From: Nanobdellota archaeon
GTDB lineage: Archaea > Nanobdellota > Nanobdellia > SCGC-AAA011-G17 > PNOQ01
Direction of reading: 5' to 3'
DNA: 64,000 nt
Assembly: GCA_018829185.1 (NCBI GenBank)
Contig: JAHJUI010000005.1
Coordinates: forward strand, 682 to 64,681
Both the position numbers and the translations under genes were made by a program. Positions within the stretch are counted from its first letter, which is position 1. Every line of letters begins with the position of its first letter. Below the pieces are notes generated by a model, which saw only the letters and a program-made list of their open reading frames with translations, did no database searches and was not told where the DNA came from. Below are positions 205 to 21,202 of this stretch, piece by piece.

Positions 205-879
205 ATGGTAAATTTAAAAGAGCAGGAAAGTATTTTTAAACTAATCGGAGAAAGTTTAAAAGAAAAAACAGAAGCTTTTGTTATTGGTGGTTCTGCAATG
301 ATGTATCATGGTGCTAAAAATGTAACTAAAGATATTGATCTGGTTTTTTCAAATAAAAAAGATAAAGAAAAAGTAGAGAAAGTTCTTAAAGATTTAAAAT
401 TTACACCAAAAAGTACAAAACTCGTATACATCAAGAAAAAAAATGTACCTTTGTTATTACAAAGAGATAATATTAAAATTGATTTATTTTGTAAAAGAAT
501 TATTTGTTTTGAACTATCACAAAAAATGATTGAAAGAGTTGCGGCAGTTTATGAATTTAATAATCTAATTTTAAAGATTATTTCTCCAGAAGACATTATA
601 GTACTAAAGTGTGCAACTGAAAGGCCAGGAGACAGATTAGATGCTGCTGAATTAATCAAAAACTTTGAGATTAATTGGGATATTATTGTTGATGAAGCAG
701 TAGCTCAAGGTAAGATTGGAAGAGGAATATTTTCTGTATTTCTATATGATTTTTTAATGGAACTTAAAGAAGATTTTAAAGTAGAAATCCCTAAACAAGT
801 TTTAAAGAATTTAATGGAGATTGGTGAAAAAGCTATTTTAAAAGCTAGGAAAGAAGGTATTTTAGTCAGAGAAGAATAA
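205..879 (+). CDS. Pol-beta superfamily nucleotidyltransferase-domain protein (AbiEii-like motif)
   Basis: N-terminal IGGSAMMYHGAKNVTKDIDLVF matches the GS-x(n)-DxD minimal NTase signature, closest to the AbiEii/DUF-type nucleotidyltransferase pattern GG[ST]A..Y...R.S.DIDL. RBS-like GGAGG sits upstream. Confidence 0.5.
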   Translation: MVNLKEQESIFKLIGESLKEKTEAFVIGGSAMMYHGAKNVTKDIDLVFSNKKDKEKVEKVLKDLKFTPKSTKLVYIKKKNVPLLLQRDNIKIDLFCKRIICFELSQKMIERVAAVYEFNNLILKIISPEDIIVLKCATERPGDRLDAAELIKNFEINWDIIVDEAVAQGKIGRGIFSVFLYDFLMELKEDFKVEIPKQVLKNLMEIGEKAILKARKEGILVREE

Positions 880-2118: not shown

Positions 2119-2898
2119 ATGAACAAAATAATAACAATCCTAACCTTAATCTTAATAATACCTTTTGTAAAAGCAAACGATGTTGAAGTAATAGTTGCAG
2201 ATTATCATGATTTAGGAGAAAATATTGACATTTATGTAAAAAATAATTTAGATGAACCAATTTATTATTTTGATGGCTGTTTTAAAGGCTTTGAAATATA
2301 TGGACCATTAGAAGAAGGCTCTTCAACTGGTGCTCAAATAAACAGGCCCTGGGAAGAAGAATGTGATGCTTTTATGAACACAGCTAGAATTCAATTTGAA
2401 GAAGGACTTAACGAACCTGCATATAGAAGATTATTAAGAAATCCATTTTTTATGTTTTTTCTTAGATTTAAAAGTCCTTTTAAGGAAAGTACATTACAAC
2501 CTGGAGAAACTAAGTTAATTCATGTTTGGGACCAAAAAGCTTATGTTAGAATGGGTGATAAAAAATTAGATGAAAGAGATACAGTTATTGGCAACAATTA
2601 CTTTGTTAAGTTTAATTATGCAAGAAATGTTAAACATTATGGTTTTTCAGGAGTGTTTTCAAATATATTGATGAATCTTTTCTTAAGAGATGAAGGAATG
2701 ATTTTAGATACTGCAAGAAGTGATTTTCTAAGAATAGGTACTGATGAGCCTTATGAACCTATAGAATTAACTCTTGTTAAACTTGAATATGAGGAAGAAG
2801 TAGATTTAGAAGAAGCACAACGTAGGTTACAAGAAATGATGGAATCTGGCACTGTAATACGGTTGCCTGGCGAGGTTGAACTTGTTAAAGTAGATTAA
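2119..2898 (+). CDS. secreted hypothetical protein
   Basis: N-terminal signal peptide (MNKIITILTLILIIPFVKA). 259 aa. Confidence 0.55.
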   Translation: MNKIITILTLILIIPFVKANDVEVIVADYHDLGENIDIYVKNNLDEPIYYFDGCFKGFEIYGPLEEGSSTGAQINRPWEEECDAFMNTARIQFEEGLNEPAYRRLLRNPFFMFFLRFKSPFKESTLQPGETKLIHVWDQKAYVRMGDKKLDERDTVIGNNYFVKFNYARNVKHYGFSGVFSNILMNLFLRDEGMILDTARSDFLRIGTDEPYEPIELTLVKLEYEEEVDLEEAQRRLQEMMESGTVIRLPGEVELVKVD

Positions 2899-2916
2899 TT
2901 GTGTGCAGCTCTAAAA
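2899..2916. repeat. intergenic motif TTGTGTGCAGCTCTAAAA (copy 2, degenerate)
   Basis: Shares the GCAGCTCTAAA core with copies at 2058 and 3573. Sits immediately after the stop of 2119..2898. Confidence 0.35.
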
Positions 2917-2952
2917 CAATAAATTAATAAACAAAAACAAAAAATTAATTCT

Positions 2953-3576
2953 ATGATAAAACTAATTATTTTCGATGTATGGTGGACCTTAGCTTATAGA
3001 GATGTAAGCTTTGGGGCAGCAACCAAAATGCTAAAAGAAACCAAAGCTCCAGTAGCTTACAAAGATTTTAAAAAAATTTTTGAAAATTCTATCCAAAAGA
3101 AAGTCTGGCCTTCTAAATATGCTGCTTATGAAATCTTATGTAAAAACATGAAAGTAAAACCAACAAAAGAGAATGTAAATCTCCTAATGAAAATAAGAGA
3201 TACAGCAGAAGCTACAACTAAATTATATGATTTTGTAATTCCTTTGATAAAAACTTTAAGAAAAAAATACAAAATAGGAATAATTTCAAATAGCAGCACA
3301 TTTGCCATAGATCAAGTAAAGAAAAACACAGATTTGTTAAAATACATTGATTATCCTTTATTTTCTTATAATGTGGGGGTAACAAAACCAAACCCGAAAT
3401 TCTTCAAAGAAATGCTAAAACTAGCCAAATGCAAACCAGAAGAAGCAATCATGATTGGAGATGACTTAGAAGATGACATTTTAGCATCAAGAAAACTTGG
3501 GATTAATGCAATTCATTTCAAAAAAGACTATAATAAGTTAAAAAAAGATTTAACTTCTTTTGGGGTTTTTGTTTGA
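2953..3576 (+). CDS. HAD-superfamily hydrolase-like protein
   Basis: IIFDVWWTL (motif I region), ISNSS (motif II), KPNPKFF (motif III Lys), MIGDDLEDDI (motif IV). The second Asp of DxD is replaced by Trp, so possibly a variant or inactive HAD. Confidence 0.55.
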   Translation: MIKLIIFDVWWTLAYRDVSFGAATKMLKETKAPVAYKDFKKIFENSIQKKVWPSKYAAYEILCKNMKVKPTKENVNLLMKIRDTAEATTKLYDFVIPLIKTLRKKYKIGIISNSSTFAIDQVKKNTDLLKYIDYPLFSYNVGVTKPNPKFFKEMLKLAKCKPEEAIMIGDDLEDDILASRKLGINAIHFKKDYNKLKKDLTSFGVFV

Positions 3577-3589
3577 GCGCAGCTCTAAA
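3573..3589. repeat. intergenic hairpin motif TTGAGCGCAGCTCTAAA (copy 3), overlapping the stop codon of the HAD gene
   Basis: Exact match to copy 1 over 17 nt. Confidence 0.4.
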
Positions 3590-3637
3590 CTATAGTTTTT
3601 TAGTTAAATTTATATAATTCTAAATTAAAATTAGAGT

Positions 3638-4138
3638 ATGCTTTCTAATAAGGAAAAAGACAGTAAAAGGGTTATAAGGGAAAAAGCTTCTTATAGATTA
3701 GCTATGAATATAAGATTAATCGCTGTTAGTTTTATTGTATTTATTTTTATTTTAACTACAAGGCCAGAAATACTTACTGAAAAACTTATTTTTTCTTTCC
3801 AATTAATACTTGCTATTCCTTTTATTTTAATGTCGTGTATGTCTTTATCTAAAATGGGTTATTCAAAAAGAAGTGATAAATGGAAAGGTTTTTCTTGGTT
3901 TAATTTTGTTATTGGTTATGCTTTTTTATTAAATGCAATTGGTATTTTAATTGCTATTTATGTTAATTTATTGTTAGCTGTTTTATTCTTCTCAGCTATT
4001 TGGATTTTACAAATTGCGTATTCTATTTTAGAAGTTTCTTATGATAAATTTGCTAAATGGGAAAGTGTTCTTAAAGATGGATTTTTTATTTTGTTACAAA
4101 TAATATTAGGTTTATTACCAGCTTTAGGTGTTTTTTAG
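3638..4138 (+). CDS. integral membrane protein (4-5 TM helices)
   Basis: Hydrophobic segments throughout. No recognised family. Confidence 0.5.
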   Translation: MLSNKEKDSKRVIREKASYRLAMNIRLIAVSFIVFIFILTTRPEILTEKLIFSFQLILAIPFILMSCMSLSKMGYSKRSDKWKGFSWFNFVIGYAFLLNAIGILIAIYVNLLLAVLFFSAIWILQIAYSILEVSYDKFAKWESVLKDGFFILLQIILGLLPALGVF

Positions 4139-4143
4139 TAAAT

Positions 4144-5028
4144 TCAAAGTCTGATCCCAATTGTATATTTTGCTATGTTTTTTATTCTTTCAGAAATAGC
4201 TCTTAAATGATATGTTAATAATGGATTATTTTCTGTTGCAAAACTTTGCCATATATCTCTTTTACTTAAATCAATAAACCAATCAATATCGAATTTATAG
4301 AAATTGTTATATGTTTCTTCAAGGAGTTTGCATAGTTTTTTTTGTGACTGGATTAATTCTTTTGGTATTTTGTTTACCTTTTCTAATCCTTGTTTTTCTA
4401 ATGCTCTTAAAAGATATTCATATTGATCTGCTATTTCTTCTAATTGGATTGCTATAAAATAATAATATTTGTATTCTAAAGGCAATGAACTAGTATTAAT
4501 CATTCTTTTAATTGTTTGAGTCCCTGAAATAATTAAAAGGTGTTTTGCTCTTATTTCATCTATTAATTCTTTTTTTCCATTTAAAAATTCTGAATATGTT
4601 TCTGATAAACTTTTTGTGATTAAGAAGATTCTTCTGAAATAATTTTGGAAATCATCTCTTTCAATATTTATTGTTTTGATTATGCATTTATTTTTGTTAA
4701 TTGTTTCTAAACGCCATTCTTCCATTGCTTTTACAGACCAAAGTAACCAAGTTAAAGTATCTGGAGTATCATAGTTTATTCTTATTGTTTTAAATCCTGC
4801 ATCATATAATAATTGTAGAATTCTGTAGATTCCAATTCTATTCGCTTGTTTTATTGTAATTGAGATTGATTTATCTTTTGGTAATGGATTTGGAGAGATT
4901 AAGAGATATTGTTCTACTTCTTCAAAATTAATTGAGTCTCCTTTTTGTAAATTATGGTGTTTTATCCATTTTTTGGGTATTGCTGCCATTAAGCAGTGTT
5001 TTCCCATTTGTACTAGTTTTCTTTCCAT
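4144..5028 (-). CDS. putative transcriptional regulator with an AbrB/SpoVT-like N-terminus and a PhoU-like helical domain
   Basis: N-terminal MGKHCLMAAIPKKWIKHHNLQKGDSINFEEV resembles the swapped-hairpin AbrB/MazE DNA-binding domain. The remainder is helical and resembles archaeal AbrB-PhoU phosphate-uptake-regulator-like proteins. Divergent from the NTase operon. Confidence 0.4.
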   Translation of the reverse strand: MERKLVQMGKHCLMAAIPKKWIKHHNLQKGDSINFEEVEQYLLISPNPLPKDKSISITIKQANRIGIYRILQLLYDAGFKTIRINYDTPDTLTWLLWSVKAMEEWRLETINKNKCIIKTINIERDDFQNYFRRIFLITKSLSETYSEFLNGKKELIDEIRAKHLLIISGTQTIKRMINTSSLPLEYKYYYFIAIQLEEIADQYEYLLRALEKQGLEKVNKIPKELIQSQKKLCKLLEETYNNFYKFDIDWFIDLSKRDIWQSFATENNPLLTYHLRAISERIKNIAKYTIGIRL

Positions 5029-5067
5029 AAGTTCGGGAAAAGGGGTTTCTTTTTAAATCTTTCTAAA

Positions 5068-5096
5068 AACTTAAGCTTTTTTGAGAAACTTAAGCT
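5068..5096. promoter_or_regulatory. direct repeat of overlapping palindromes AACTTAAGCT(T) x2 in the divergent promoter region
   Basis: AACTTAAGCT at 5068..5077 and 5087..5096. Each contains CTTAAG and AAGCTT palindromes. Located between the AbrB-like regulator (start 5028) and the 5139 operon, so it is an operator candidate. Confidence 0.35.
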
Positions 5097-5138
5097 GAAT
5101 TTTAAAATAATCTAATTGTTTCTTAATTTTGATAAAAA

Positions 5139-5606
5139 ATGGATTTTGAAGAAATGGAAGACTTAATATTAAATGAAGCGGAAAAATGTACTTGGACTCG
5201 CTATCCAGATATAAATTGTTTTGATGACTTTCCAGATCATTATTATCGTGGTATTTTAGGTAACTTTGAGGCTATGTTACGGTTAGGACGTCTGTGCATT
5301 TATGAATGGATTCAAAGACCTTGTAAACGAACCCCTCCCCGTAGAGGCCGGGAAATATGTTGGACTGATTTAGTGAGTATAGACCATGACCGGACGAGAA
5401 GATTGTTCAGAAAACTATCAACAGAATTGGATTTGTTTAGAGAGCCAGAAAAACCAATAGACCTATCAAAAATAACTCGATTTTACCCTAGAACTAAAGA
5501 GGAAAAAGAAAGATATTACAAGGAGGAGAGAGGATATTACCTAGGGAGTATAGTTGTATCTATTACAAACAATCCTATGCTAGATTCTATACGGTCCCAT
5601 ACCTAA
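5139..5606 (+). CDS. hypothetical protein, first gene of the NTase/HD cassette (GC-elevated)
   Basis: 155 aa. The stop overlaps the start of the next gene (TAATG). Arg/Pro-rich. No recognised domain. Confidence 0.45.
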   Translation: MDFEEMEDLILNEAEKCTWTRYPDINCFDDFPDHYYRGILGNFEAMLRLGRLCIYEWIQRPCKRTPPRRGREICWTDLVSIDHDRTRRLFRKLSTELDLFREPEKPIDLSKITRFYPRTKEEKERYYKEERGYYLGSIVVSITNNPMLDSIRSHT

Positions 5607-6373
5607 TGACAAACGTAATTTATGAAACAGAAAGAAGATTAAAAGTTATTGATTCTGTAACAAATGATATAAATTCTGTGGTTAGGGCAATTTGTATTGG
5701 TGGCTCTATGGGTTTTGGCCAATATTACTCTATTAGAGAAAGTTCTGATATTGATATGGTTGTTGTGGTTGATCAAGACAAAGTTGATGATTTAGTTACT
5801 TTGCCTTATTTTCAAGGAGAAGTTCCTGATAATGTTGTTGAATTATTTAAACAAGGAAAAATAAATTTATTTTGGGTAACAAAAGAAGTTGATGATATTG
5901 AAGTAGGTGCTTTTGTTTATGAAACAGGGGGTTATTTGAATTTTTGTACATTGCAAGGCGGTATAACAGGTTATATTGATCATAAGCCAGAATTAACTCA
6001 GGATGCTTGGGGTTTTGATGGAGTCCATATTGTAATTGATAGAAATGTAATTCCTTGTGGGGATAATTATTCATATAGTAAACCTGCCTTAGTAAATGGT
6101 AAATTTTGGGGTGGTGTTCCTAGGGCTGATTTCTTTTATTTAGGACATTTTGCTTATGAAGAAGGTAATTTTCTTACAAATCTAGAAAAAGTTGTTTGGG
6201 AAATTACTATAAAACAATTGGTTAATGAACATGGCTTTAATGTTGATTTATCTAGATTTAATGTTTTAAATTCGGTTCACCCTTACAATACAAGTCCAGA
6301 GAAACTTCCTCCAAAAACTATCACGAATATACAAGAAGGAACAATAGAAGAATTAGCTAAAATCAACCAATAA
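5606..6373 (+). CDS. Pol-beta superfamily nucleotidyltransferase
   Basis: GGSMGFGQYYSIRESSDIDMVVVV gives a GS...DxD catalytic signature (AbiEii/ANT-like). Translationally coupled to the upstream ORF. Confidence 0.55.
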   Translation: MTNVIYETERRLKVIDSVTNDINSVVRAICIGGSMGFGQYYSIRESSDIDMVVVVDQDKVDDLVTLPYFQGEVPDNVVELFKQGKINLFWVTKEVDDIEVGAFVYETGGYLNFCTLQGGITGYIDHKPELTQDAWGFDGVHIVIDRNVIPCGDNYSYSKPALVNGKFWGGVPRADFFYLGHFAYEEGNFLTNLEKVVWEITIKQLVNEHGFNVDLSRFNVLNSVHPYNTSPEKLPPKTITNIQEGTIEELAKINQ

Positions 6374-6392
6374 ACTTTAAATATCCTATTTA

Positions 6393-7037
6393 TTGACTAA
6401 TACTATGATAAGTAATAAAGTTAATCCAAAGTACAACTGGGATCTATTAATGAATGAATTATCCAAATCTTCTGATGATAAAACTGGGCATTGCAAAGAC
6501 CATTCTTTAAGGGTTTTGAAAATTGCTTTAGACATTGCAGATTCTATTGAAAAAGTGGATTATAATGTATTGGTGGTAGCTTGCATTTTACATGATATTT
6601 CTTTTTCAACACATGGCCCAAAAGGTCATGCTATTAAAAGTGCTGAACTAGCAGAGCCAATTTTAGTTAAAGCGGGTTTTTCCAAAGAAGAAATTGAAAA
6701 AATCAAACAAGCAATAACAAGGCACGACAGAAACTTTTCAACCAAAAAAGAAGACCATGAACATTATTTAATAGAAGAGCAAATATTATGTGATGCTGAC
6801 AGGATAGATGGGTTGGGAGCGATTGGGATCATTAGGGGGATTTCATTTGGCATAAATCATGGAAGACCTTATTTTGTCTCTAAGGAAGATGAATTAAACG
6901 ATAGCATCTATGGTAGTATGAAAACTTATACCAAAACAGCTAAAATTATGTTCACAAAAAAGGGTAAAGAACTAGCAAAAGAAAGATGTAAAATTATGAA
7001 TGAGTTTTTAGTACAACTTGAAAAAGAGTTTCAGTAA
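6393..7037 (+). CDS. HD-domain metal-dependent phosphohydrolase
   Basis: H..H(D) ... ILHDISF ... TRHD ... [13 protein letters not shown] motifs, typical of the HD superfamily. Confidence 0.7.
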
Positions 7038-7069
7038 CATTTATAAAGTGCTATTTTTCTCAAACTATC

Positions 7070-7378
7070 ATGCAAAAAGCAAGAATCAATTTAGCAAGTG
7101 CAGATATTGGTAAGATGAATCAAATATGTGATTCTATTAAAGCAATCTCCGATAAGACTGGTGTTCAAATGAAAGGTCCTATTCCGTTACCAACTAAAAA
7201 ATTAAAGTTAACTACTAGAAAAAGCCCAGATGGTGAAGGAAAAGCTAGTTGGGAAAGATATGAAATGCGAATACATAAGAGATTAATTGATTTAGGTGTT
7301 GATGAAAGAGCTTTAAGACTGATTATGAGAGTACCTATTCCTGAAGGTGTTGACATTCAGATTGAGTTGTTAGACTAA
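7070..7378 (+). CDS. rps10: 30S ribosomal protein S10 (uS10), archaeal type
   Basis: [39 protein letters not shown] is the canonical uS10 core. 102 aa. Confidence 0.9.
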
Positions 7379-7500
7379 TGGCAAGAAAATCTATTTCTAA
7401 GGTTTTAAGTAAACATCTAGAAAACGAAGATTATACTGAATTCTTTGAAGTTGAAGATTTAGAAAAATTACATAAGTTGTATGAAGAGATTTTTAAGTAA
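7378..7500 (+). CDS. possible small ORF (40 aa) overlapping the rps10 stop (TAATG)
   Basis: [40 protein letters not shown]. Below the ORF-track length cutoff. Speculative. Confidence 0.2.
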   Translation: MARKSISKVLSKHLENEDYTEFFEVEDLEKLHKLYEEIFK

Positions 7501-7534
7501 AGTTTATAAATATTAATCAATTACCTTTTATTAT

Positions 7535-7873
7535 ATGATCGGTCCAATAAATGGGTGGTTAGAAAGATTAAATCCCCACGTATATCATCCAGAAGATTTA
7601 GTTGTACTATATAGAGAATATATAAAGGAGGATCCAATTAGTGGGCATTTTGTAAAAAAAAGAATAAAATTACATGGCAGAGTAACAAAAACTATTGAAG
7701 GTTGGCATCTTGAAAAGTCAGACTATGTTGTAATGGCAAGGTATTCAGAAAGACCAGATAATGTACAAATAGGTTCTGGAAATAGAAGCAAAACATATAG
7801 AAAAGCTAATTTCTTTGAAAGAATACATCCTAGCAAGTTTCCTCTGCCATTAGAAGAACGTACTGTTAACTAA
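7535..7873 (+). CDS. hypothetical protein
   Basis: 112-aa ORF, moderately GC-elevated. No recognised family. Confidence 0.4.
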   Translation: MIGPINGWLERLNPHVYHPEDLVVLYREYIKEDPISGHFVKKRIKLHGRVTKTIEGWHLEKSDYVVMARYSERPDNVQIGSGNRSKTYRKANFFERIHPSKFPLPLEERTVN

Positions 7874-7875
7874 AT

Positions 7876-9405
7876 TTATTCTACAGTAACTGGTTTTTCT
7901 AAAAACTCTTTTAAATCTTTTCTTACTTTTTTACCAAATTTTGTTAAATTACCCTTCCCATCTAAGATCTTATATTGATTTAACTGTCCTATTAACCAAT
8001 TAGATGTCTTTTTATTTTTTCCTAATAAAAATTTAGCACAACCAGTATTTCCTAATCTTTCCTGTAATATTTTTCTTCTTTTTGGATAGTACTTAAATAG
8101 TTTATCTTTTAAGATTGATATGTTTTTTATTATTTCTAAAGATCCTATCACCAAGTCTACTCTATCATATTTATCATTTTCCCATCTCCTTACAGAAGAT
8201 TTTATATTATTTTTATCACATACTTTCTTCAAAATTTCAATTTCGCTGCTGTTTGTACTTATGATTATATGACTGTGTGTTTTGGAATTAACACAGCCAT
8301 CCCCTTCCATAACCCCGCAAATAAAATTAAATGCTAACACTTTATCGTTTTCTTTATATATTGTATTCAATAAATGATTTAATAGTCTGTTATAATAAAT
8401 TTGGACAAGTTTTCTATCTTCTCTAATTCTTAATGAGCCATAGGGGTTCCTATTTGGAGCGTATTTTGTTTTTGTTTTAATAATTCTAATTTTTTTATTT
8501 TTTAATATCAATCCTGTTTTTTTAGACCATTTTTTAATTAGTTTATTTTTTAATAGTTCCAAATCTTTTTCTTGGTAATTTGTGTAAGTCAGAGATATAG
8601 CAATATTTGAGTCCAAGATTATTTTTTTATGTTTTTCTTTAAAATAATTGGCTTGCTCAAAAGTAGATGCAGACATTGCCCAATGGTTTCCTTTTTTTGT
8701 ACCATCTGAAAAATAACATCCAAGATAATGTGCAAATTCATTTAAATTTATTTTTTTATTTAGGGTGAATGGGTTATGATTACCATAAAACACTAAAATG
8801 TTGTTTTTATTTATTTCAACAAAGTTAAAATTAATTAATAACTTTTTAAAAAGTTTACTTGATTTTGTTAATTTATTTCCATCAAATTTCTTCCCAATTT
8901 TAAATATTCCTTTTTTTCCTGATAATCCTTTACCTAGCATACACATTAATTCTTTTGTCTTTTTTCTTTTTGTAGAATTTACAACACAAATCTTTTTAAA
9001 ATTATTTTTATTTATTGTTATATTAATTAAAATTATATCTTTATTTTTTAAATTATAAAAATTTGGAATATAAATTCTTCCGTCAGATCCAACTTTAGTA
9101 AAGAAACCATTGATTTTTTCCATTTGAACTTCTACTTTCTGTTTGTAAAGTTTATTTTTAATGTTTAAATCAGTAGGTATAAATATTCCATTTCCCCGGT
9201 AATTTCTTATTTTACTATAAAAAATAATTTTTGAATTTAATCTTATTTTATACTGATCTTTAATTGAAAATTTATTCCTTATTTGTAAAGGTATTCTAAT
9301 AAACCCTGCCCCTTTATTATTTCCCTTTGTTGCTATGGCTTCAAATTTTATTTTGTCCATATTAAATAACAGAATTTGTAGATATTTAAGCTTTTCTATA
9401 GTCAC
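7876..9405 (-). CDS. LAGLIDADG-type (double-motif) homing-endonuclease-like protein with N-terminal extension
   Basis: Two dodecapeptide-like motifs about 140 aa apart: LNEFAHYLGCYFSDGTKKG and LAFNFICGVMEGDGCVN. Extremely Lys/Asn-rich and AT-rich compared with the adjacent glmS. Confidence 0.4.
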   Translation of the reverse strand: MTIEKLKYLQILLFNMDKIKFEAIATKGNNKGAGFIRIPLQIRNKFSIKDQYKIRLNSKIIFYSKIRNYRGNGIFIPTDLNIKNKLYKQKVEVQMEKINGFFTKVGSDGRIYIPNFYNLKNKDIILINITINKNNFKKICVVNSTKRKKTKELMCMLGKGLSGKKGIFKIGKKFDGNKLTKSSKLFKKLLINFNFVEINKNNILVFYGNHNPFTLNKKINLNEFAHYLGCYFSDGTKKGNHWAMSASTFEQANYFKEKHKKIILDSNIAISLTYTNYQEKDLELLKNKLIKKWSKKTGLILKNKKIRIIKTKTKYAPNRNPYGSLRIREDRKLVQIYYNRLLNHLLNTIYKENDKVLAFNFICGVMEGDGCVNSKTHSHIIISTNSSEIEILKKVCDKNNIKSSVRRWENDKYDRVDLVIGSLEIIKNISILKDKLFKYYPKRRKILQERLGNTGCAKFLLGKNKKTSNWLIGQLNQYKILDGKGNLTKFGKKVRKDLKEFLEKPVTVE

Positions 9406-9427
9406 ACAAAATTAAGAATTGTGTGGT

Positions 9428-11224
9428 TTATTCGACTGTGCAGCTTTTCGCGAGGTTGCGAGGCTGATCAACGTCACATTCTTTTTTTACTGCAATATAA
9501 TAAGCAAGTAATTGCATTGGAATAGATGCTAATATTGGTGTTAAGATGTAAGAAGTTTCTGGGATATACATTGTAAAGTCACTTAGTTCTCTTATTTCTT
9601 TATCTCCTATGGTTGCAATAGAAATTATTATTCCCCCGCGAGCTTTAACTTCTTCTATATTGGAAATTACTTTTTTGTAAGTTCTGTTGTCTTTTGTTGC
9701 TATGAAAAATACAGGCATTTCATTGTCTATTAAAGCAATTGGTCCATGTTTCATTTCTGCTGCAGGATAACCTTCTGCGTGAATGTAACTTACTTCTTTT
9801 AGTTTTAATGCTCCTTCTAAAGCTATTGGAAAGTTTATTCCTCTCCCTAAATATAATGCATTTTTCTTTAAGTAATATTTATCAGCACATTCAAGTACTT
9901 CTTTTCCATTGTTTAAAATGGATCTTATCAAATTTGGGATTAGTTTTATGTCACGAATTCTGTTTTCTATTTGTTGTAAGGGAAGAATATTTCTAACCTT
10001 TCCAAAATAAATTGTTAAATAATATAACATTGTTAATTGAGATGTAAATGCTTTTGTTGAAGCAACTCCAATTTCTGGACCTGCATCTAAATGTATTGTG
10101 GAATCTGATTCACGCTCTATAGTTGAGCCATGAACATTAACTAGGGAAACTATTTTTGCTCCTTTTGATTTTGCTTCTCTTAAAGCTGCAAGTGTATCTG
10201 CTGTTTCTCCTGATTGGGATATTGGAATTACTAATGTGTTTTCATCTAATATTGGGTCCCTGTATCTAAACTCTGATGCATATTCTACTTCTGTTGGAAT
10301 CTTTAATAATTCTTCAAACATAAATTCAGCTATTAAAGCAGAATGCCAAGAAGTGCCACAAGCAACTAAAACTATTCTTTTTATGTTTTTTATTTCGTTT
10401 TCAGTAAGATTTAAGTTAGAGAATAAGATTTCATTGTTTAATACTCTTTTTTGATTTATTTTTTCTATTATGTCTGCTTGTTCATGAATTTCTTTTAACA
10501 TAAAATGAGGATAATTATTTTTTTCAGCTTCTTCTATTGACCAAGAGATTTCCATTGGTTTTCTTTTGATTTCTTTATTTGTGTAAATATTTGATATTTT
10601 TATTTTATCATTAATTACTGCTATTTCATCATCTTCTAAAAACAATACTTTATTTGTGTGTTTTAAGAATGCTGGAATGTCAGATGCTATGAAGTAATCA
10701 TTATCTTTTATTCCAATTACTAAAGGTGAACCTTTTCTTGCTGCAAGTATTTGATCAGAATCTTTGTTTATTGCTAAGATTGCAAAGGTTCCATCTAATT
10801 GTTTTATTGTTTCTTTGAAAGCTTGTTCAAAAGGTAAGTTTGATTCTCCAATTAAATGTGCTATTACTTCAGTATCTGTTTCTGATTTGAATTCATGGTT
10901 TTTTAGTTTGTTTTTTAGTTCTTGGTAGTTTTCTATTATTCCATTGTGGACTATTGCTATGTTGTTGTAAACGTGCGGGTGGGCGTTTTCTTTTGTTACT
11001 GAACCATGTGTGCTCCAACGAGTATGTGCTATTGCTATGTTTGATTTTGGTAATTCTTTGTTAAATTTGTGTATTTTTCCAACTTCTTTTATTATTTCAA
11101 AAGAATTATTTTGCTTTATTGCAAAACCATAAGAGTCGTATCCCCGGTATTCTAATTTCTTTAATCCTTCTATAACTATCTCAGATGCATTTTTACTCCC
11201 TTTATAACCAATTATGCCGCACAT
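9428..11224 (-). CDS. glmS: glutamine--fructose-6-phosphate aminotransferase (isomerizing)
   Basis: N-terminal MCGIIGY (Ntn Cys), two SIS domains, C-terminal ...LAKSCTVE. 598 aa. Confidence 0.92.
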   Translation of the reverse strand: MCGIIGYKGSKNASEIVIEGLKKLEYRGYDSYGFAIKQNNSFEIIKEVGKIHKFNKELPKSNIAIAHTRWSTHGSVTKENAHPHVYNNIAIVHNGIIENYQELKNKLKNHEFKSETDTEVIAHLIGESNLPFEQAFKETIKQLDGTFAILAINKDSDQILAARKGSPLVIGIKDNDYFIASDIPAFLKHTNKVLFLEDDEIAVINDKIKISNIYTNKEIKRKPMEISWSIEEAEKNNYPHFMLKEIHEQADIIEKINQKRVLNNEILFSNLNLTENEIKNIKRIVLVACGTSWHSALIAEFMFEELLKIPTEVEYASEFRYRDPILDENTLVIPISQSGETADTLAALREAKSKGAKIVSLVNVHGSTIERESDSTIHLDAGPEIGVASTKAFTSQLTMLYYLTIYFGKVRNILPLQQIENRIRDIKLIPNLIRSILNNGKEVLECADKYYLKKNALYLGRGINFPIALEGALKLKEVSYIHAEGYPAAEMKHGPIALIDNEMPVFFIATKDNRTYKKVISNIEEVKARGGIIISIATIGDKEIRELSDFTMYIPETSYILTPILASIPMQLLAYYIAVKKECDVDQPRNLAKSCTVE

Positions 11225-11280: not shown

Positions 11281-11436
11281 GCCGAGATCGCGTAATCTGG
11301 TATCGCACCAGACTCATTTATGAGGGTGAACCTGGAATCAGATACGGTCAGCTGGGCCTGCAAGGGCGTCTGGGTTCAAACATGTGCGCTGGTTGCTTAT
11401 AGTTTCCAACGTGCGTTGAAAGTCCCAGTCTCGGCG
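11281..11436 (+). tRNA. putative intron-containing pre-tRNA (anticodon CAU; Met or Ile2 type) with two or more introns, one apparently in the T-arm; alternatively a novel structured ncRNA
   Basis: 156-nt GC-rich island in an AT-rich spacer. 5' part reads GCCGAGA-UC-GCG-UAAUCUGGUAU-CGC-A-CCAGA-CU-CAU (acceptor, D-arm with GG, anticodon stem, U33, CAU). 3' part reads CTGGG-TTCAAAC ... CCCAG-TCTCGGC-G (T-stem, T-loop, complementary T-stem, acceptor complement to GCCGAGA, discriminator). The two parts are separated by about 80 extra nt. A T-run follows (TTTTATTT) and box A lies at -25. The exact exon/intron map could not be resolved by eye. Confidence 0.4.
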
Positions 11437-11485
11437 TTTTATTTCCAAAACATTTATATTTAGGTGTTTACTACTAATTGTTAAT

Positions 11486-20234: not shown

Positions 20235-21202
20235 CTAATCAAATAAGCTAGAAACAGACTCTCCACAATGAATTCTGCGTATTGCTTCTGCTAATAAGGG
20301 TGCTATAGAAACAGTTTTTATTTTCTTTATTTGTTTAAATTTTATTGAGTTTGTTACAATCACTTCTTCTATATCTGGGTCTTCCATTCTTTCAAATGCT
20401 GGGCCTGCAAAGTCTCCATGGGTGAATGAGAGGTATATTTTCTTTGCTCCACTTTGTTTTAATGTTTTTACTGCAGCTATTAAGGTTCCGCCAGTCATTA
20501 TCATGTCATCCATCATAATTACATCTTTTCCTCTTACATTTCCTAAAATAATTGCTTCTTGGACTTTGTCATGACCTTCTAATTCGTATGATCTTTTTTT
20601 ACTTATTATTACAAAGGGTAAATGTAGCTTTGAAGCTAGTTTTGAATTTATTTTTACTCCGCCTTCATCTGGTGCAACAACTACAAAATTTTTTAGATTC
20701 ATTCTTTGAAAATGTTTGGCTAAGATGGGCATTGCGTATAAATTATCGCAAGGAATATCAAAAAAACCTTGGATTTGGCTTGCATGTAAATCTAAAGTTA
20801 GAATTCTATCTGCTCCTGCTGCAGTTAATAAATTTGCTACTAATTTAGCTGTAATTGGTTCTCTAGAGGCTGCTTTTCTGTCTTGTTTTGAATAACCGTA
20901 CCAAGGCATTACAGCTGTGATTCTTCTTGCAGATGATCTTTTTAATGCGTAGATGATCTTTTTAATGCGTCAATCATGATTAAAAGTTCCATTAAAGTTT
21001 CATTTGCTGGATTAGAAGTTGATTGTATTATGAAAACATCTTTTTCCCTCATGTTTTCTTTTACCCTTACATATGTTTCTGAGTTTGCAAATTTGTCTAT
21101 TTCTACTTTTGTTAAAGGTATTCTTAGAATTTTAGATATTTCTTGTCCAAGCTCTGGGTTTGATGTGCCACAAGTTAACTTTATGTTGTTTCTGGTTATC
21201 AT
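20235..21202 (-). pseudogene. prs: ribose-phosphate pyrophosphokinase (PRPP synthetase) disrupted by a 20-bp tandem duplication
   Basis: Two ORFs (20942..21202 N-terminus, 20235..20909 C-terminus) together make a complete Prs. Removing one copy of AGATGATCTTTTTAATGCGT restores DALKRSSARRITAVMPWYGYSKQDRKA, the conserved Prs block. With the duplication the frame ends ...ALKRSSTH*. Confidence 0.75.
20931..20970. repeat. exact 20-bp tandem duplication (AGATGATCTTTTTAATGCGT x2) inside prs
   Basis: Directly visible in sequence. The length is not a multiple of 3, so it causes a frameshift. Confidence 0.9.

Follow-up and report, generated by a model that had tools for sequence, protein, structure and literature searches.

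We analysed a 64-kb stretch of DNA (hereafter the window) from a metagenome-assembled genome (MAG) of Nanoarchaeota (DPANN), and in it four genes lying upstream of the gene for ribosomal protein S10: a regulator gene on the minus strand and, divergent from it, a small gene (orf155), a nucleotidyltransferase (NTase) gene, and an HD phosphohydrolase gene. As first called, the four open reading frames (ORFs) span 4144-5028 (-), 5139-5606 (+), 5606-6373 (+), and 6393-7037 (+). A preliminary description had presented the last three as a translationally coupled cassette under an AbrB/PhoU-like regulator. A protein identical (100%) to the window NTase is encoded on contig JBDRRR010000022.1 of assembly GCA_043825655.1. 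Comparison loci carry the labels L007, L023, L024, L029, and L034 to L038, L029 being the sibling genome GCA_043823355.1. The features of the locus, with lengths in nucleotides (nt) and amino acids (aa) and with promoter elements named as TATA-like and B recognition element (BRE)-like, are as follows.

4144-5028, minus strand: regulator gene, 294 aa; N-terminus AbrB/SpoVT(MazE)-like, then an alpha/beta middle and a helical C-terminal part of unplaced family
5050-5065, minus strand: predicted regulator promoter, BRE-like TTAGAAAG then TATA-like ATTTAAAAA, ~30 nt before the ATG
5067-5077: candidate operator box 1, AAACTTAAGCT, core of the near-palindrome AAAAACTTAAGCTTTTT; abuts the regulator BRE
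5086-5096: candidate operator box 2, AAACTTAAGCT, at a distance of 19 nt from box 1 and with 4 nt between its end and the orf155 TATA-like element
5101-5110, plus strand: TATA-like element of the predicted orf155-NTase unit, TTTTAAAATA; starts at about -38 from the ATG at 5139; conserved in L037
5139-5606, plus strand: orf155, 155 aa, facing the regulator gene; alternative start ATG at 5154 (150 aa)
5606-6373, plus strand: NTase gene, 255 aa, Pol-beta superfamily, small uncharacterised family; no TATA of its own in the window
6377-6384, plus strand: TATA-like element of the predicted HD promoter, TTTAAATA, given also as CTTTAAATA; starts at about -29/-30 from the ATG at 6405
6405-7037, plus strand: HD gene, 210 aa, YpgQ/YedJ-type stand-alone HD phosphohydrolase; resident upstream of S10 and outside the variable block
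7070-7378, plus strand: S10 gene (PF00338, E 2.4e-28), a conserved neighbourhood anchor with its own TATA, TTTATAAA, at -30
4143-6374: 2.23-kb insertion or deletion (indel) relative to L029, the variable block, made up of regulator, intergenic region, orf155, and NTase and nothing else; TAAA at 4139-4142 and 6371-6374

Gene order in relatives and transcription units

The NTase was followed through 22 non-self loci from ~17 lineages, and no homologue of the HD protein, the regulator, or orf155 was found by tblastn within 6 kb of any of them. Neighbours shared with the window were limited to S10 and GlmS, both in the closest relative L007, and all-versus-all clustering of the NTase-flanking ORFs yielded no recurrent partner; elsewhere the NTase lies beside genes for EF-1a, S10, L31e, L15e, S2, AspRS, PheRS, RNase J, RFC, TFIIB, FtsZ, TatD, TYW1, OapB/C, or RLI. 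Around the HD gene of five other lineages, no NTase-family match was detected nearby at E<=1. The conserved three-gene cassette that had been proposed is thus contradicted by its relatives, none of which keeps the synteny and among which the genes are scattered. On these comparisons, the adjacency of the three genes is a chance juxtaposition and not a defence or signalling system.

Comparison with the sibling genome L029 shows where the window differs. Gene order there is TM166, HD, S10, a 42-aa ORF, and GlmS, with protein identities to the window of 99% (TM166), 81% (HD), 100% (S10), and 96% (GlmS); S10 is 77% identical in L007. By blastn, window positions 3567-4142 correspond to L029 positions 2624-3204 (95.7%) and window positions 6371-7495 to L029 positions 3201-4326 (86%), the two segments abutting in L029. 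Because the HD gene is absent from the 4143-6374 indel and is kept by L029 beside S10, we place it outside the variable block. A second clean indel relative to L029, at 7496-9461, holds orf112 (7535-7873, no matches) and a 509-aa ORF (7876-9405, minus strand), and in L036 the regulator is joined directly to an orf259 homologue, so that its left neighbour differs from that in the window. With two indels and this altered junction, we regard the stretch as fluid. The 509-aa ORF has a sub-threshold match to LAGLIDADG_3 (E 0.016) and may represent an insertion of homing-endonuclease type that separates the S10 unit from GlmS. Directly 3' of S10, a 40-aa ORF (7378-7500) is called in all public assemblies, is conserved as the 42-aa ORF in L029, and carries no annotation.

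The first indel could alternatively mark a mobile accessory island of regulator, orf155, and NTase that was inserted between TM166 and HD, rather than deleted from L029. Its clean 2.23-kb limits flanked by TAAA, the nearby second indel with its LAGLIDADG-like gene, the changed left neighbour in L036, and the foreign composition of orf155 would all suit such an island. Set against these are the lack of any integrase, transposase, or terminal inverted repeats, the triviality of TAAA at 30% GC (guanine plus cytosine), the host-like codons of the regulator and the NTase, and the recurrence of the trio as a unit in no other genome. Moreover, the gene order of the outgroup L007 (EF-2, EF-1a, NTase, CBM9, S10, MTase, GlmS) already has the NTase upstream of S10 and GlmS, which makes deletion in the sibling at least as parsimonious. 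An inserted island is therefore a conceivable but rather unlikely account of the indel.

The arrangement of promoters points to separate transcription. We located TATA-like hexamers relative to the ATG of 45 window genes, and they peak at -30 to -28 (9, 11, and 12 matches against a background of ~1), most genes having one that starts within -31 to -27, often with TAGAAA(A/C) upstream of the element; this position implies that mRNAs of this DPANN archaeon are predominantly leaderless. Among the genes that follow this rule are the regulator, with the TATA-like sequence TTAGAAAGATTTAAAAAG, HD, S10, and orf112; the position of the regulator promoter implies a leaderless-type transcript there as well. 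The orf155 TATA lies ~9 nt further from its ATG than the genome norm. The NTase does not fit the rule in the window, and in most other lineages it has a TATA-like element at ~-30; since it has none here, we read it as transcribed with orf155. A sigma-70 and terminator scan gave chance-level output and is irrelevant for an archaeon, and the TATA-position analysis was used in its place.

The preliminary description had also held that all three genes are translationally coupled, through a TAATG overlap followed by a 19-nt spacer. The overlap is present, the orf155 stop TAA (5604-5606) and the NTase ATG (5606-5608) sharing one base. The second half of that claim does not hold: the HD start is most likely ATG 6405 and not TTG 6393, as it is used by public gene calls and aligns with the start in L029, so that the NTase-HD spacer is 31 nt and not 19. 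With this start and a spacer bearing its own TATA (the L029 equivalent is CTTTATAAC, with no NTase upstream), the HD gene would not be coupled to the NTase. The likely transcription units are thus the regulator, orf155 with the NTase, HD, and S10 with what follows it.

The regulator, its paired boxes, and the divergent small gene

Between the divergent promoters, AACTTAAGCT occurs twice with a start-to-start distance of 19 nt, as had been described from the sequence. The exactly repeated part is the 11-nt AAACTTAAGCT, of which the entire 64 kb contains two exact copies only, at 5067-5077 and 5086-5096. Under a window-wide first-order Markov null, a 110-nt stretch would hold such a repeat with a probability of ~0.004, and an empirical count of close repeats of at least 11 nt in the 64 kb gave 12. 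Each copy had been described as two overlapping 6-bp palindromes: CTTAAG, which is two-fold under-represented within the window, is indeed in both, and AAGCTT is complete in copy 1 only.

A metagenome scan recovered regulator orthologues in L037 (97% identity), L036 (94%), L034 and L035 (69%), and L038 (53%), and loci with upstream sequence represent four lineages (the window, L037, L034, and L038). Box 1 matches the window at 10/11 positions in L034 and 11/11 in L038, box 2 at 11/11 and 9/11, respectively, and the 19-nt spacing is kept. Pooled over both boxes and both loci, 41 of 44 sites are identical (93%) against 37 of 98 in neutral flanks, and the TATA-to-ATG segments in the same intergenic alignments are 33-43% identical. 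Box 1 of L034 is the perfect palindrome AAAACTTAAGTTTT, and both L037 and L034 keep the predicted regulator promoter. Of 38 fetched loci, only those bearing the regulator gene contained the box motif, which stood solely upstream of that gene. This phylogenetic footprint strongly supports the repeat as a candidate operator for the adjacent AbrB-like regulator, as the preliminary description had suggested. The layout is symmetrical, with box 1 at the regulator BRE and box 2 at the orf155 TATA, and would thus be suited to blocking transcription factor B (TFB) and TATA-binding protein (TBP) at both promoters.

A possible likeness of the regulator itself to known families is confined to its N-terminal part. 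Residues 17-46 of the window protein match PF04014 below threshold (E 1.2e-3), and two orthologues do so at E 1.9e-2 and 9e-4; bit scores for the three are 19.2, 15.3, and 19.6 over the same residues against a cut-off of 24.7, a weak match given by the N-terminal sequence GKHCLMAAIPKKWIKHHNLQKGDSINFEEVE. Some ~240 further residues have no Pfam, NCBIfam, or PDB match, a family profile found nothing in PDB at E<=10, and a single-sequence AlphaFold2 (AF2) model (mean pLDDT confidence 46) was too poor for a fold search. The PhoU half of the AbrB/PhoU-like label found no backing: neither PF01895 nor an NCBIfam PhoU model matched any of three orthologues at E<=0.1-1. The LEEIADQ and SERIKNI motifs and the helical C-terminus are reminiscent of PhoU, which we take as a lead only, unsupported by the searches. 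In the literature, AbrB and PhoU appeared only in lists of archaeal transcription-factor families.

A relation to AbrB/SpoVT/MazE regulators is suggested by the weak, sub-threshold PF04014 match at the N-terminus in three orthologues, and like those members with autoregulated promoters the protein has paired near-palindromes between its own and a divergent promoter, kept across lineages. It differs from them in being 294 aa long, with most of that length lacking a counterpart in the databases searched, in having a divergent gene as its putative target instead of a co-directional toxin, and in the archaeal BRE/TATA context of its promoters. Its codon usage is host-like. Scans of viral contigs found neither the regulator family nor the double-box pattern. 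In L035 (51-923), an in-frame stop breaks the orthologue into 85-aa and 156-aa pieces, by pseudogenization or sequencing error.

Facing the regulator, orf155 is compositionally unlike its host. Its GC content is 36.8% against a gene mean of 30.6% (standard deviation (sd) 3.2), a value that ranks among the highest 7.5% of 468-nt windows; the strong GC elevation claimed for it was thus overstated for the whole gene and is borne out for a 150-nt core (5250-5399, 44.7%, top 0.4%). GC at third codon positions (GC3) is 27.7% against 17.7% (sd 2.2), or 4.5 sd high, the codon-usage score is 0.04 against 0.41 (sd 0.06), and CGN codons encode 10 of its 19 arginines against 12% in host genes. A search of 5.8 billion (5.8e9) proteins returned orf155 alone, and no Pfam, NCBIfam, PADLOC, PHROG, or PDB match was found. 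The GC-rich core prompted a check for a structured RNA, which was dismissed: an Rfam search at E<=1 over 3600-8000 was empty, and no tRNA lies in that stretch.

Wherever sequence upstream of the regulator is available, a divergent ORF of 131-155 aa occupies this place (131-144 aa in L037, L034, and L038). Pairwise BLASTP among these slot ORFs is marginal (E 0.006-0.08), and leave-one-out hidden Markov models (HMMs) never place the left-out member significantly (E 0.12 once, otherwise outside the top hits), so we call the conservation of the slot positional only. L037, which shares its metagenome with a contig of the window strain, matches the window at 91% identity across the regulator and the intergenic region as far as 5133, and at 93% across the initial 54 NTase bases (5606-5659), where its contig ends; between them, 5134-5605 shows no similarity, and an unrelated 131-134-aa ORF occupies the place. 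The atypical codons together with this exact replacement in a near-identical strain fit a foreign or rapidly replaced orf155, and the horizontal origin suggested earlier agrees with both.

After the slot ORF, the next gene in L034 (3-881) and L038 (3082-4281) encodes a TctA-family membrane protein, not an NTase, 161-194 nt downstream. The two proteins are 41.6% identical, and that of L038 matches PF01970 at E 1e-46; the 64-kb window has no TctA gene. Because this gene takes the place of the NTase, we regard regulator, candidate operator, and slot as the conserved core and the third gene as variable, and the module may originally have controlled a transporter.

A different explanation of the slot is that orf155 is a spurious or decaying ORF, and that the NTase is preceded at 5111-5605 by a lengthy, regulated 5' leader or by left-over foreign DNA. 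The missing homologues would be expected under this explanation, as would a codon score far below that of all host genes with its excess of CGN arginine codons, the failure of leave-one-out HMMs to link the positional analogues, and the empty Rfam search. By our own estimate, however, the chance of 155 open codons at 30-37% GC is ~4e-6, and the frame is the best-scoring of six; for these two reasons we treat orf155 as a real gene. Three other lineages with a divergent ORF of similar size at this position argue likewise, and the limits of the L037 replacement, no more than 6 nt from the ATG on one side and at the stop codon on the other, suggest a unit the size of a gene. We consider it unlikely that orf155 is not a gene.

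A bolder interpretation is that this is a variable slot of a new kind in DPANN archaea, kept tightly repressed by the AbrB-like regulator through a fixed dual palindromic operator, in which the small gene is swapped wholesale between strains, unrelated sequences alternating within conserved flanks, and an orphan NTase has been recruited here as a co-expressed partner. We offer it as speculation that is unlikely to hold. If true, the swap pattern would be that expected of an effector in an arms race, whether a toxin, an anti-viral factor, or a factor in host interaction.

The nucleotidyltransferase, the HD phosphohydrolase, and other features

The window NTase carries the Pol-beta motif GGSMG...SDIDM, in agreement with the hG[GS]-x9-13-Dh[DE]h motif and third carboxylate of Pol-beta NTases: G33-S34, D48, and D50 are invariant or nearly so in alignments of 15 and 40 sequences, and E99 is invariant among 15 close homologues. 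An exhaustive profile search gathered 194 representative clusters at E<1e-3, and the members with organism names come from Woesearchaeota, Pacearchaeota, and Nanoarchaeota MAGs, plus one MAG labelled Saccharibacteria; among the distant clusters, none bears a name. The window protein itself has no Pfam, NCBIfam, or PDB sequence match; among 40 diverse members, PF01909 (NTP_transf_2) was detected in 13 (best 2.6e-7) and Polbeta in 8. Its codon usage looks native.

The family profile reaches kanamycin nucleotidyltransferase (KNTase) at E 0.017 over KNTase residues 13-66. The AF2 model is confident (pLDDT 92.4), and its best PDB fold matches are ANT(4')/KNTase and Tam41 at template-modelling (TM) scores of 0.35-0.37 and the unnamed NTase-like 3c18 at 0.32-0.33, KNTase being the match of lowest E-value (1e-4, probability 1.0), though at TM 0.35. 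The viral structure library gave nothing better than E 1.3e-3. The protein is like KNTase ANT(4')/MNT (PF01909) in its N-terminal helix followed by hGGS-x12-SDID, and the profile and fold matches and the PF01909 matches of other members may point the same way. It is unlike them in the low TM score, in the absence of a Pfam match of its own and of a resistance context, and in a beta-rich middle (residues 120-185) and a conserved KPAL..GKFWGG.PR that have no counterpart there.

Other assignments were considered and set aside. For AbiEii, the window NTase gave no Pfam match at E<=0.1, PF08843 matched 0 of the 40 family members at E<=0.01, and PADLOC gave no AbiE model; an AbiEi-type antitoxin as partner found no candidate in the upstream orf155, which has neither homologue nor domain, and the NTase is solitary in ~17 other lineages. 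For a CD-NTase of the cyclic-oligonucleotide-based antiphage signalling (CBASS) type, Foldseek aligned CdnE 6e0k at E 8e-4, with TM 0.28 and a root-mean-square deviation (rmsd) of 15 Å over the Pol-beta core only, KNTase and Tam41 rank higher, and CD-NTase models matched 0 of 40 members; as to context, PADLOC gave only E>0.01 matches to minimal-NTase candidate models, and what lies next to the NTase is a YpgQ-type HD gene followed by S10. A housekeeping split CCA-adding or GlnD-like pair, which had been named as a possible counter-explanation, fares no better: the window NTase has no PolyA_pol or GlnD match, PolyA_pol matched 0 of 40 members, the HD protein scores far below threshold with GlnD and CCA models (14-16 bits against cut-offs above 400), and the pairing is not conserved.

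Because family, profile, and fold searches point elsewhere, the AbiEii likeness comes down to the generic GS/DxD motif. Likeness to AbiEii/MenT toxins and CD-NTases extends to that generic Pol-beta catalytic core only; unlike them, the NTase matches no HMM of these families, has neither AbiEi nor a Cap effector as a partner gene, and belongs to no conserved operon. Two side observations concern NTase genes. In a Woesearchaeota MAG (genome CAZRTL01), two NTase paralogues lie on different contigs (L023 and L024), and the L024 copy directly follows an apparent tRNA 3' end (GGTTCAAATCC) and a LAGLIDADG_3 protein. A second nucleotidyltransferase-like gene in the window (205-879, plus strand, 224 aa, precomputed DUF6036 and weak DUF2204) is unrelated to the 255-aa NTase, and overlaps the 3' end of a preceding 209-aa gene that extends past the window start.

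The idea that the NTase is an AbiEii/MenT-like toxin, with orf155 or the MazE/AbrB-like regulator as its antitoxin, draws on the GS...DxD motif, on the toxin-antitoxin-like layout of a small upstream gene overlapping the NTase start, and on the MazE/AbrB-like N-terminus of the regulator with its palindromic boxes. PF08843 is nonetheless found in neither the window protein nor the 40 family members, PADLOC has no AbiE or MenT match, and AbiEii and MenT structures are absent among the 50 PDB fold matches listed. The NTase also stands without a cognate partner in all other lineages, the regulator and small ORF are paired without it in L034 and L038, and the unrelated small ORF that precedes a nearly identical NTase start in L037 is incompatible with a cognate antitoxin. 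We therefore think a toxin-antitoxin pair very improbable.

The HD phosphohydrolase label of the preliminary description stands. The domain matches PF01966 (E 9.8e-14) and NCBIfam PRK10119, and full-length PDB matches over residues 27-213 include Lin1889 3b57 (2e-13), YpgQ 5dqv (2.4e-12), 2pq7, and YedJ 3gw7, with E-values from 2e-13 to 3e-9. The ligands H...HD...D are intact at H37, H67-D68, and D134/D136 (214-aa numbering). YpgQ of B. subtilis is a Mn-dependent (deoxy)nucleoside triphosphate ((d)NTP) pyrophosphohydrolase (PMC8177086), the only member of the group with that known activity. By kinship the window protein is a predicted YpgQ/YedJ-type (d)NTP pyrophosphohydrolase: like YpgQ (B. 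subtilis), YedJ (E. coli), and Lin1889, it shows full-length similarity (E 2e-13 to 3e-9), keeps the ligands listed above, and is of similar size (210 aa), and unlike them it is roughly 25-30% identical, has an archaeal host, and holds a lineage-specific position next to S10. Its 81% identity to L029 stands beside 96-100% for TM166, S10, and GlmS, and its GC3 of 25% is above the host range, which suggests that the gene is evolving faster or was allelically replaced.

Could orf155, NTase, and HD nevertheless be one module under the AbrB-like regulator, either with the HD protein degrading a signal or modification made by the NTase or with the two acting as paired effectors in defence? The genes adjoin one another in the same orientation, with a TAATG overlap, pairings of NTase and HD proteins occur in known systems, Foldseek lists CdnE, and transcription could read through from NTase to HD. 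The adjacency is, however, found in this species alone (none of ~17 further lineages with the NTase and none of 5 with the HD gene shows it), and the HD gene keeps its promoter and its S10 position in L029 without the NTase. The CdnE match is limited to the Pol-beta core, PADLOC system models match the three proteins no further than generic NTase and HD cores, and the HD protein is of a generic YpgQ/YedJ type. We judge a single module very unlikely, and the CBASS-like, (p)ppGpp-type or SpoT-like, and defence roles raised earlier for the NTase-HD pair gained no sequence or fold test in their favour. Defence and phage-protein libraries (PADLOC and PHROGs) likewise gave no system assignment for the proteins of the region, and our literature search found no paper linking DPANN, NTase, and HD.

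Elsewhere in the window, a GC-rich 157-nt segment (11281-11437, plus strand) lies within the window GC maximum (150-nt windows up to 52.7% GC). Its ends are acceptor-like (GCCGAGA...TCTCGGC), and it also contains GCGTAATCTGGTATCGC, similar to a D-arm, and a CAT whose context is anticodon-like, with a fold z-score of only -1.9; it resembles an intron-containing tRNA and was called by neither ARAGORN nor an Rfam gathering search. An exact 20-nt tandem direct repeat (20931-20970, AGATGATCTTTTTAATGCGT twice), located just 5' of the minus-strand gene 20235-20909, is a possible cis-regulatory candidate.

A proposed reading of the region as separate pieces upstream of S10

Our preferred reading, to which we assign a probability of roughly 0.7, is that the region consists of three independent pieces upstream of S10 in a rearrangement-prone stretch: a regulatory module, an orphan NTase, and an HD gene. 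The first piece would comprise the 294-aa AbrB/SpoVT-like regulator, the two near-palindromic boxes, and a divergent hypervariable small ORF, here orf155. Most probably, two dimers of the regulator bind, one pair across both boxes, and would then occlude TFB/TBP on both sides, thus repressing its own gene as well as the small-ORF transcript. The second piece would be a stand-alone Pol-beta-type NTase with remote affinity to KNTase/MNT, elsewhere solitary with its own promoter; in this species only, it appears to be co-transcribed behind orf155 and may thereby have come under control of the regulator. The third, the HD gene with its predicted promoter, would be a neighbour of S10 whether or not the other two are present.

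Several points weigh against this division. The boxes could instead be activator sites or shared promoter elements, and their footprint comes from only three independent lineages. The AbrB label leans on sub-threshold Pfam matches, with a matchless remainder and no usable fold model. Between NTase and HD there is no clear terminator, so that read-through into HD is possible, and replacement of the small ORF is known from one 1-kb metagenomic contig, that of L037. Finally, the order NTase-(x)-S10 may be ancestral, with the NTase lost in L029, and NTase/HD adjacency could carry selective value here.

An NTase-HD cassette for defence or signalling would have been notable if real; the evidence indicates chance adjacency. 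What the locus may offer in its place is threefold. The paired boxes are among the few archaeal (DPANN) operator candidates with cross-lineage footprint support and clear BRE/TATA geometry. The NTase belongs to a small orphan Pol-beta family that is reported almost solely from DPANN MAGs and combines a confident predicted structure with no close solved relative. A strain-hypervariable small gene opposite a conserved regulator, finally, could point to conflict or host-interaction genes, which are almost unknown in these organisms.

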